NCBI GenBank assembly: GCA_029571985.1
Contig: JAKQVC010000130.1
Location: forward strand, 53,741-117,740
Length of the DNA stretch: 64,000 bases
From: Bacteroidota bacterium
GTDB lineage: Bacteria > Bacteroidota > Bacteroidia > Chitinophagales > BACL12
Direction: 5' to 3'
The notes under the pieces are model-generated. The model was not told where the DNA came from. It saw only the letters and a list, made by a program, of their open reading frames with translations, and searched no databases. The translations under genes were made by a program, and so were the position numbers. Shown here in pieces: positions 32,667 through 34,958 of this stretch (the first letter of the stretch is position 1; every line of letters starts with the position of its first letter).

Positions 32667-32695
32667 TTTGATTTCTTGAAATTAGTGTATATTTG
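32667..32695 (+). promoter_or_regulatory. Bacteroidota primary-sigma promoter for the rtcB leader
   Basis: TTTG at 32667-32670 and TATATTTG at 32688-32695. Confidence 0.6.
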
Positions 32696-32714
32696 CGTTG
32701 AAATTAATTAAGAC

Positions 32715-32789
32715 ATGCGTCTGCTAAACAAAAACATATTTGAACGCTATCAGCAGGATGAACATCCTGGCCGAGGTTTTTTTTATTGA
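32715..32789 (+). CDS. Putative leader peptide MRLLNKNIFERYQQDEHPGRGFFY (24 aa) upstream of rtcB
   Basis: ATG 19 nt after the -7 element in A-rich context; TGA at 32787-32789; its 3' end is complementary to the downstream terminator arm. Confidence 0.65.
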   Translation: MRLLNKNIFERYQQDEHPGRGFFY

Positions 32790-32816
32790 CTTGAAACAAT
32801 TCATTCAATGATATGT

Positions 32817-32848
32817 AAACCCTGGCCTTGAGTCAGGGTTTTTTATTT
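32817..32848 (+). terminator. Intrinsic terminator (attenuator) inside the rtcB 5' leader
   Basis: aaaccctggc-cttga-gtcagggtttttt-attt. Confidence 0.75.
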
Positions 32849-32991
32849 CCCTGATCTTCCGGCTGTGCTGTTTTGTGCAGGAGTACTGCATATTTACATA
32901 TGTTATAACATATGTGAAAAGGCCACTCTATGCTTATTAGCATACGATTGACAGCTTAAAATGCATAATGTTATTTAAACATGAAAACGAG

Positions 32992-34392
32992 ATGAGAAAA
33001 TTAAATTTAAAAGGAAAAGACCTTAGAAAAATCGGGTATCCTGAAAGTATTGTTATTGGTGTAGCCATTCAGGTAATGCATCAGTATCATAAACATACGA
33101 CTAAAGAAGAAGCACTGCGCATATTAAAGAATGTTGCAGCGAATCCGGATGCATTTGTACAGGATGAAGTGCTTGGAAAAATTGCTCAGGCATTTATGCA
33201 GCATTTACATCCGCAGTCAGATACACTGACTTTGCGTGCCAATCGATTAGCCTATGCAACCTATGGTGCTGAACATATTGAACAGGGTGCAGTACATCAA
33301 ATGGAGGTTGCCATGAAATTACCTGTGTCGGTTGCCGGTGCATTAATGCCGGATGCACACCAGGGATATGGTTTGCCAATTGGCGGTGTACTCGCTACAG
33401 ATAATGCAGTTATTCCTTATGGTGTTGGTGTTGATATTGGTTGCAGAATGTGCATGACAATTTTTGATGTGCCTGCACAGTATGCCTTGCAACAAGTGGA
33501 TGCCTTAACTGGTTATCTGACAAGAAATACCACCTTTGGTTCAGGGGCAACAATTAAAAATCCGGGTGAACATCCTGTTTTGGATGACCCTGCTTTTACA
33601 TCAACACCCTTATTAAGGAGTTTGCATGATAAAGCGGTAAAACAATTAGGAACATCCGGAAGCGGAAATCACTTTGTTGAATTTGGTATTGTTGATATTA
33701 CTGCTGAACATAATGCATTGCATGTAACGCCCGGCAGTTACCTCGCATTATTATCGCATAGTGGTTCACGTGGATTAGGTGCTTCTGTTGCCAGTTATTA
33801 TACCAGATTAGCGAAGGAATTATGTAAGCTGCCTGATTCCGCAAAACATCTTGCGTATTTATCGCTCGATTCTGAAGAAGGAATGGCGTACTGGATCGCC
33901 ATGCAATTAAGTGGCGATTATGCATCTGCATGTCATCATAAAATTCATGAAAAAGTGCATCGTTCTCTCGGTGGTACAATTCTGGCAAGAGTTGAAAATC
34001 ATCACAATTTCGCCTGGAAAGAAATGCATCAGGGCAGAGAGGTAATAGTACATCGTAAAGGTGCAACACCGGCGGGAAAAGGAGTGCTCGGCATTATTCC
34101 GGGTAGTATGACCGCTCCGGGATTTATTGTGGAAGGTAGAGGAGAAGACAATGCATTGCATTCTGCTGCTCATGGTGCCGGAAGACTTATGTCGAGAACG
34201 GCAGCAAAATCACAATTTACCAAAGCCATGATGCGAAGTGTACTGAACGACGCCGGGGTAACCTTAATTGGCGGTGATATTGATGAATCGCCAATGGCTT
34301 ACAAAGACATACAAACCGTAATGCGTAATCAGGAAGACCTGGTGAACATTATCGGCATTTTTAAACCAAAAGTGGTTCGAATGGATGGTTGA
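32992..34392 (+). CDS. rtcB: RtcB family RNA 2',3'-cyclic phosphate/3'-phosphate ligase
   Basis: 'MPDAHQGYGLPIGG', 'VGVDIGC', 'GSGNHFVE', 'HSGSRG', 'HHN', 'HRKGA', 'IPGSM', 'SAAHGAGR', 'DESPMAYK'. Confidence 0.95.
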   Translation: MRKLNLKGKDLRKIGYPESIVIGVAIQVMHQYHKHTTKEEALRILKNVAANPDAFVQDEVLGKIAQAFMQHLHPQSDTLTLRANRLAYATYGAEHIEQGAVHQMEVAMKLPVSVAGALMPDAHQGYGLPIGGVLATDNAVIPYGVGVDIGCRMCMTIFDVPAQYALQQVDALTGYLTRNTTFGSGATIKNPGEHPVLDDPAFTSTPLLRSLHDKAVKQLGTSGSGNHFVEFGIVDITAEHNALHVTPGSYLALLSHSGSRGLGASVASYYTRLAKELCKLPDSAKHLAYLSLDSEEGMAYWIAMQLSGDYASACHHKIHEKVHRSLGGTILARVENHHNFAWKEMHQGREVIVHRKGATPAGKGVLGIIPGSMTAPGFIVEGRGEDNALHSAAHGAGRLMSRTAAKSQFTKAMMRSVLNDAGVTLIGGDIDESPMAYKDIQTVMRNQEDLVNIIGIFKPKVVRMDG

Positions 34393-34457: not shown

Positions 34458-34958
34458 ATGGAAATCTTATATGATTTGGAAGAGAAATTATTGCGCATGC
34501 AACAATTATTGCAAGCTGGAAAAGCAATCAAGGCGAAGCGACTTGCAGAAGAATTATTAGAAGAAGAACCAGGACTTGCTGAAGCTCACATGACCCTGGG
34601 CACGATCTATGAAAATCACTTGCAGGATTTTGCGCGGGCAGCGACCTGTTATGCACTCGCTGTCCGTTTCGATGAGTCTATCGCTATAGCCTGGTATGCT
34701 TTAATACGCATGCAATATTATCTCAGCGATTATGTTGCTTTAGAGCACACCTGCGAACGCGCATTAGTACATGTGCATGTATACAAGTTTATTGTATATC
34801 AATTTCATGCACTTGCACAAGAAGAACAATTGCATTTTAAACGGGCTATCCGATTATTTGAATTGGCCCAATTATATGCAATGCAAGATGGCGATCTGGA
34901 TACCGCTAAAAAACATATCCAGCGCGTAAAAGTAAAAATGGATATTAAACGCGATTGA
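34458..34958 (+). CDS. TPR-repeat protein
   Basis: 'EEEPGLAEAHMTLGTIY', 'A..CYALAVRFD' helical repeats. Confidence 0.7.
   Translation: MEILYDLEEKLLRMQQLLQAGKAIKAKRLAEELLEEEPGLAEAHMTLGTIYENHLQDFARAATCYALAVRFDESIAIAWYALIRMQYYLSDYVALEHTCERALVHVHVYKFIVYQFHALAQEEQLHFKRAIRLFELAQLYAMQDGDLDTAKKHIQRVKVKMDIKRD

Follow-up and report, generated by a model that had tools for sequence, protein, structure and literature searches.

In Escherichia coli, rtcBA is controlled by RtcR and sigma54, and RtcB is induced upon RNA damage. Other rtcB operons are regulated by WYL/WCX proteins, according to the accessible part of the report that describes them (PMC12606134). Attenuation of an RtcB-like gene has been proposed in Pseudomonas aeruginosa, where the accessible text of three papers (PMC12057347, PMC3516279, and PMC3575510) describes transcriptional attenuation of armZ (PA5471) by the leader peptide PA5471.1, relieved by ribosome stalling. 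Leader-peptide attenuators also serve amino-acid operons of Flavobacterium psychrophilum (PMC9723704), and the Bacteroid-trp leader has been described (PMC2864571), with no mention of rtcB in the accessible portions of either paper. TPR genes are mentioned together with prfH-rtcB in the accessible text of PMC6514570, and the corresponding portions of PMC9304027, PMC4833913, and PMC8297930 contain nothing on such a leader. The initial annotation of the locus studied here had taken attenuation through an open reading frame located upstream (uORF) to be undescribed for rtcB. For Bacteroidota we likewise found no description of an rtcB attenuator in the literature searched, which lay outside subscription journals and bioRxiv supplements; but attenuation of an RtcB-like gene has already been proposed for PA5471.1/armZ, on the accessible text of those papers, and the principle is not new.

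We analyzed a 64-kb stretch of DNA (the window) in which a short uORF and a terminator precede rtcB. The conserved leader at 32688-32854 is probably a ribosome-dependent transcription attenuator that switches rtcB on when translation fails. The parts of the leader and the genes that follow it are listed here.

32667..32670, + strand: candidate -33 element TTTG, recognized by sequence and similarly spaced in relatives; presumed function
32688..32695, + strand: Bacteroidota -7 promoter element TAnnTTTG, here TATATTTG, recognized by sequence
32715..32789, + strand: leader uORF of 24 codons, without a run of any amino acid
32734..32739, + strand: region 1, an ACATAT motif predicted to be able to pair with ATATGT at 32811-32816
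32754..32769, + strand: hairpin P1 (CAGGAT/ATCCTG), directly 5' of the antiterminator strand
32769..32779, + strand: strand B, the 5' strand of the antiterminator (GGCCGAGGTTT), with the core GCCGAGG at 32770-32776 (codons 19-22)
32817..32827, + strand: strand C, common to antiterminator (B:C) and terminator (C:D)
32832..32844, + strand: strand D and U-tract, intrinsic terminator assigned from sequence and pairing only
32849..32854, + strand: strand E (CCCTGA), the predicted partner of D after read-through
32992..34392, + strand: rtcB, encoding a long, Bacteroidota-type RNA ligase other than RtcB2 (PF01139, E 8e-80)
34458..34958, + strand: TPR protein, with weak TPR matches

The coordinates that had been assigned to the promoter, the 24-aa uORF, P1, B, C, and the terminator all hold in the sequence, as does the pairing of B (32769-32779) with C (32817-32827) at 10 of 11 positions. 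The TTTG at 32667-32670 lies 17 nt 5' of the -7 element, and transcription is predicted to start near 32700. Terminator C:D spans 32817-32841, with T6 at 32839-32844. Alignment with homologues places the rtcB ATG at 32992, 144 nt past 32848, and the window sequence between terminator and rtcB contains no TAnnTTTG. Pairing of region 1 with ATATGT at 32811-32816 would form a candidate anti-antiterminator, P1 is a possible RNA polymerase pause site, and it is a candidate reading that the polymerase may pause at the ACATATCG motif. A perfect 20-bp palindrome (ACATATGTTA/TAACATATGT, window 32896-32915) also lies between terminator and rtcB; it contains two further ACATAT copies and was not seen in relatives.

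Judging from its domain score and from its metal-binding and guanylylated residues, the downstream ligase appears to be a genuine member of PF01139, and its motifs DIGC, GNHF, HSGSRG, HHNF, and HGAGR align with RtcB of P. horikoshii. It is not RtcB2, because its score against TIGR03073 is 136 bits and the cut-off is 272. The TPR gene at 34458-34958 is likely co-transcribed with rtcB. This conserved TPR family travels with rtcB: it follows the ligase gene on the 3' side in five family relatives and in L127 and L129, and in L285 a homologue sits under its own leader.

Under the proposed mechanism, strand B would be covered by a ribosome whose A site has reached codon 17 or any later codon; C would then be left for D to pair with, and RNA polymerase would stop near 32844. 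With the ribosome held at codons 2-15, or with none on the uORF, B would instead take up C ahead of the synthesis of D, and transcription would continue into rtcB-TPR. We modeled this in nascent RNA, folded before D appears and with a 28-nt ribosome footprint. For the window, C was sequestered at 0.8 with the ribosome at codons 2-15 and at 0.2-0.4 from codon 17 to the stop, and four of five amino-acid controls switched after their sensing codons, as expected. All 39 repair-type leaders in the set, from which L255 was left out for having no terminator by rule, sequestered C early. A clear late drop followed in 25 of them, B:C formed with no ribosome in 37, and a ribosome at the stop left C free (<0.3) in only 6. 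Masking of B is predicted over the last ~10 codons. The initial annotation had assumed that the antiterminator is blocked once a ribosome reaches the stop, which fits the genome of the window but fails for eight family-level leaders, where B precedes the stop by 17-29 nt and a ribosome that has arrived at the stop is predicted to leave B exposed again. An equilibrium model, in which the full terminator was folded, failed on the five amino-acid attenuators that served as a positive control, so its results were not used as support; in the no-ribosome state of the window it gave a terminator at 0.96, versus an antiterminator at 0.81 in the nascent model. Because of that failure we chose the direction in which translation that passes normally through the last ten codons leads to termination and an earlier stall leads to read-through.

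Judged from this one sequence alone, the leader appears only modestly above chance. Its fold beats 199 of 200 shuffles (z -3.2) and the minimum-free-energy structure contains B:C, a duplex of -10 kcal/mol with one mismatch that is among the weaker ones of the leaders scanned. Without a promoter requirement, the genome of the window holds 423 terminator-like sites and 226 small-ORF/terminator pairings of similar geometry; the scan that demanded a TAnnTTTG promoter gave 13 matches, of which the window locus has the strongest duplex. Three scans found no second leader of the same kind in that genome. RNA data came from four runs in four studies, all as assembled contigs in which DNA may be present. 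In run X11, from sludge, a 213-nt contig identical to 32714-32926 spans the uORF and runs through the terminator, with no 3' end visible at 32844, although such contigs show cover and bridging only and cannot show starts, ends, or level. Other RNA contig pieces lie in rtcB, and none lies on the gene upstream of the leader, a lack of cover that is not evidence by itself.

Among 28 genomes of the same family, eight carry an rtcB of the window's type. The full layout of promoter, uORF, B, C, D, and U-tract is intact in all seven that have a complete rtcB upstream region, with uORFs of 24-30 codons in the family leaders; in the eighth the contig ends 177 nt upstream, and the terminator is kept. 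A pattern derived from the relatives matched seven of the 28 genomes once each, six times before rtcB and once in a genome, G020, that is taken up below. Across eight aligned family leaders, B:C was paired in 92% of cells, with one C-G/U-A change, and C:D in 100%; shuffles reached as high a pairing in 3 of 500 and 45 of 500 cases, respectively, counts that are not probabilities because the sequences are related. These patterns suggest covariation at both helices, in few, related sequences with one clean change. Strand B looks like an antiterminator strand: the B:C helix would be mutually exclusive with the terminator, it overlaps the ORF, and a compensatory change is present. Hairpins of unrelated sequence are predicted at the position of P1 in many relatives.

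The layout recurs well beyond the family. Of 251 genomes in family f34, 70 carry a window-type rtcB, and 19 of the 71 places examined (84 listed) have a uORF-terminator leader within 500 nt. From 29 leaders we set a scan rule: a promoter, an ATG, 13-33 codons, a stop 15-33 nt before the terminator, and a duplex of <= -7 kcal/mol. Across 345 kb of sense upstream DNA, this rule found a leader upstream of 41 of 184 nonredundant Bacteroidota rtcB loci, often at operon heads 1-2.8 kb away, with 15 of the 41 outside the rule-setting leaders; it found 0 matches in 1.02 Mb of control DNA (345 kb antisense plus 2 x 339 kb downstream). It is because of this comparison that we regard the leader as real, and the expectation in the initial annotation that a uORF-coupled antiterminator/terminator would be conserved is borne out. 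The 143 loci at which the rule found no match include many with only 0.9-1.5 kb of upstream sequence. A metagenome scan yielded three loci only, all of one near-identical type. None of the conclusions draws on the unpublished genome G561.

In all 29 leaders, C starts 19-29 nt past the stop, and nascent folds of 24 of them pair C with a segment located 5-29 nt ahead of the stop. The first ATG past the promoter opens the uORF in 29 of 29 tested, and a TAnnTTTG-type element lies 5' of the uORF in 28. A stop in place has a chance of ~10% each in shuffles, a figure to be read with the fact that the leaders had been chosen on this geometry. B is read in all three frames, and the conserved 'YQQDExPG' peptide that had been anticipated was not found in the family or in the wider leaders. 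The ATG lies 4 nt past the promoter in 7 of the 29, which, given the usual offset from promoter to start site, suggests leaderless translation. Apparently leaderless leader peptides, with the ATG 4 nt past TAnnTTTG, were noted at L127, L129, L168, L169, L171, L177, L188, L190, L194, and L196. At L063 the terminator is present and a uORF was not found. Cultured organisms that carry the leader include Chitinophaga ginsengisegetis (L037), Flavobacterium suzhouense (L070), and Flexithrix dorotheae (L090). In L090 and L202 a further terminator-like hairpin comes after the first one; that of L090 has a 5' arm similar to C, through which D could relay antitermination. Up to 420 nt upstream of rtcB, L041, L044, L047, L086, L103, L113, L117, and L133 carry repeated units of GTAG...TACTTCG followed by a tRNA-like T-arm, which are probably Y-RNA-like partners of TROVE proteins.

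Comparison establishes how the leader is built, that it recurs, and that it is akin to amino-acid attenuators. Searches with models of the rtcB leaders also return leaders that carry runs of Trp, Phe/Tyr, Cys/Met, or Val/Ala, and these precede trpE- (anthranilate synthase), pheA- (prephenate dehydratase), sulfite-reductase-, and aminotransferase-like genes. Most of the weak model matches, with E values around 0.002-0.01, were terminators of the ordinary kind at gene ends. Leaders with Phe/Tyr, Cys/Met, and Val/Ala runs stand before pheA-like, sulfite reductase, and aminotransferase genes at L222, L230, L240, and L258, and the three of these tested (L222, L230, and L258) have no Rfam match at cut-off. 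The ACATAT(C) motif, ~17-24 nt into the ORF, is common to rtcB-type and amino-acid-run leaders; ATAT occurs at nt 9-33 in 19 of 22 nonredundant rtcB-type uORFs, in all three frames, versus 18% of 2,000 gene starts. The Rfam consensus of Bacteroid-trp has UACAUAU before the Trp codons, pairing with AUAUGUA before the terminator arm, and ACAUAU at 32734-39 of the window is predicted to pair in the same manner with AUAUGU at 32811-16. The window uORF has no Trp codon and hence no tandem Trp codons, and the gene downstream is rtcB, not trp. Since the window does not score with RF01692 (Bacteroid-trp), either at the 49-bit gathering cut-off or at E 10, the leader lies outside that family, and by its sequence it is built like the Bacteroidota amino-acid attenuators. 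Rfam at cut-off returned nothing except a tRNA elsewhere.

Leaders without a run head a different set of operons: prfH-like, TPR, AAA-SPFH-rtcB, and TROVE-rtcB operons, as well as five tRNA arrays, three of which are followed by SPFH and rtcB. These arrays (L278, L279, L280, L281, and L282) contain tRNA genes for Glu, Gln, Tyr, Asp, His, Lys, Asn, Ile, Met, and Phe and continue into SPFH, rtcB, or TPR genes. At L287 (G564, 300-1078), the same leader type precedes a MarR/ArsR-like regulator rather than a repair gene.

Because there is no amino-acid run and no conserved peptide, and because of the genes controlled, we infer that the signal would be whatever keeps the ribosome from arriving at the last ten codons in time, whether cut tRNA or rRNA, antibiotics, or starvation. 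More tentatively, and with the balance of our judgment against it, an amino-acid attenuator may have become a general sensor of tRNA integrity, with a many-codon sampler replacing the one-codon run so that almost any tRNA loss turns repair genes on. Loss of tRNA, for example through an anticodon nuclease, would then stall the leader ribosome and bring on the RNA ligase together with Ro60/PrfH helpers and, in a subset of genomes, extra tRNA genes. Residue diversity in repair-gene leaders exceeded that of same-length proteome windows in 29 of 33 and that of the leaders' own shuffles in 26 of 33, although kin are not independent; one such leader uses all 20 amino acids in 31 codons, and the peptide of the window has average diversity (z 0.2). 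It is rather improbable that the same attenuator is tuned to one tRNA or amino acid, or to a C-terminal arrest motif RG[MF][YF]. The family leaders and that of L202 do end in RG[MF], and early codons show a 1.7-2.6-fold excess of His, Cys, Arg, and Gln. However, one CCGG-type strand, read in different frames, gives the endings RG, PW/PR/SR, and TG alike, the excess of His derives largely from the CATATC motif, and residue runs are lacking.

We give still less credence to a protein or ligand that binds the leader and throws the switch (autoregulation by RtcB or the TPR protein, or an L10-like mimic), with the uORF incidental. The conserved P1 hairpin and the ACATAT motif, otherwise unexplained, would suit such a switch, and the best Rfam match in the region is L10_leader (RF00557). 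That match, at 24.3 bits, is far under the 44-bit cut-off, leaves model positions 1-25 unmatched, and is not upstream of rplJ; relatives have no L10 leader match at the gathering score, and the ATG, the open frame, and the stop position are kept while the sequence drifts. Just as little weight goes to an unregulated, leaky terminator that does no more than damp rtcB, or whose released product, a small RNA or peptide, has a function of its own. Chance alone often places small ORFs ahead of terminators, the sludge RNA includes a contig that bridges the terminator, and G020 (L137 1410-2100) has kept its leader intact at a locus that lacks rtcB and continues with two small ORFs and guaB, in what looks like the loss of rtcB-TPR with the switch retained. 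Yet B changes together with C and D, the controls gave no matches, and homologous Trp- and Phe-run leaders precede the matching biosynthetic genes. Control mainly of rtcB translation or mRNA stability, through D:E and downstream hairpins, has next to no likelihood even though an equivalent of strand E recurs past the U-tract in many relatives, for the U-tract is invariant among the leaders compared, many loci have a first gene far downstream or a leader heading tRNA genes, and there only transcription control makes sense.

The absence of rtcR noted for the window extends to the whole genome, 97% complete, in which RtcR (PF06956), WYL (PF13280), RtcA, and TROVE were not found and prfH was found below cut-off only. 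Among the 184 rtcB loci, a WYL/WCX-like gene lies upstream in 19, a leader in 41, and both in 1, so that the two may be mutually exclusive, which is no more than suggested because the flanks are short. The WYL/WCX gene is divergent and upstream of the rtcB operon at L066 (1788-2804, - strand) and 18 other loci. An inverted repeat, CGC[AG]-N6-8-TGCG[TC], occurs upstream in 13 of the 19 WYL loci versus 1 of the 41 leader loci and is a candidate binding box.

If the attenuator operates as proposed, a large phylum without RtcR runs RNA repair by a protein-free sensor of ribosome progress, an alternative to WYL-type regulators. The leader would be a compact reporter of translation damage for Bacteroidota, it would name a regulon (rtcB, TPR, SPFH, AAA, TROVE, prfH-like genes, and tRNA arrays), and it would exemplify the reuse of an amino-acid attenuator for another purpose. 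It is also relevant to attenuation in bacteria whose translation initiation does not use Shine-Dalgarno pairing and, in some of them, takes place on uORFs that seem to be leaderless. The surprise is limited because the principle itself is known.

Set beside the known systems, the locus resembles PA5471.1-armZ-PA5470 (prfH), as far as the accessible text describes it, in having a short leader ORF 5' of an RtcB-like gene. It differs in phylum, in promoter type, and in leader length (13 aa there, 15-31 aa in Bacteroidota). ArmZ is a MexZ anti-repressor encoded beside prfH, whereas the RtcB of the window is long, motif-complete, and below the RtcB2 cut-off, has a TPR partner, and is not an RtcB2-type gene linked to prfH. 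RtcR/sigma54 and WYL/WCX systems have the same output as the leader but use protein sensors. With the attenuators of whiB7/wblC and vmlR, on the accessible accounts, the proposed switch shares stalling on a uORF that leads to read-through into a translation-protection gene. An antibiotic-sensing uORF attenuator of the same kind controls hflXr. Those systems belong to Actinobacteria and Firmicutes, and their outputs are a regulator, an ABCF ATPase, and a ribosome splitter rather than an RNA ligase. Bacteroid-trp (RF01692) and the ilvE/hisG leaders of F. psychrophilum, in what is accessible of their descriptions, have the same order of parts, the ACAUAU region 1, and the AAG/ACCCGG-type terminator arm. 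Unlike them, the rtcB-type leaders have no Trp or other run and control RNA-repair genes, rescue genes, and tRNA arrays.
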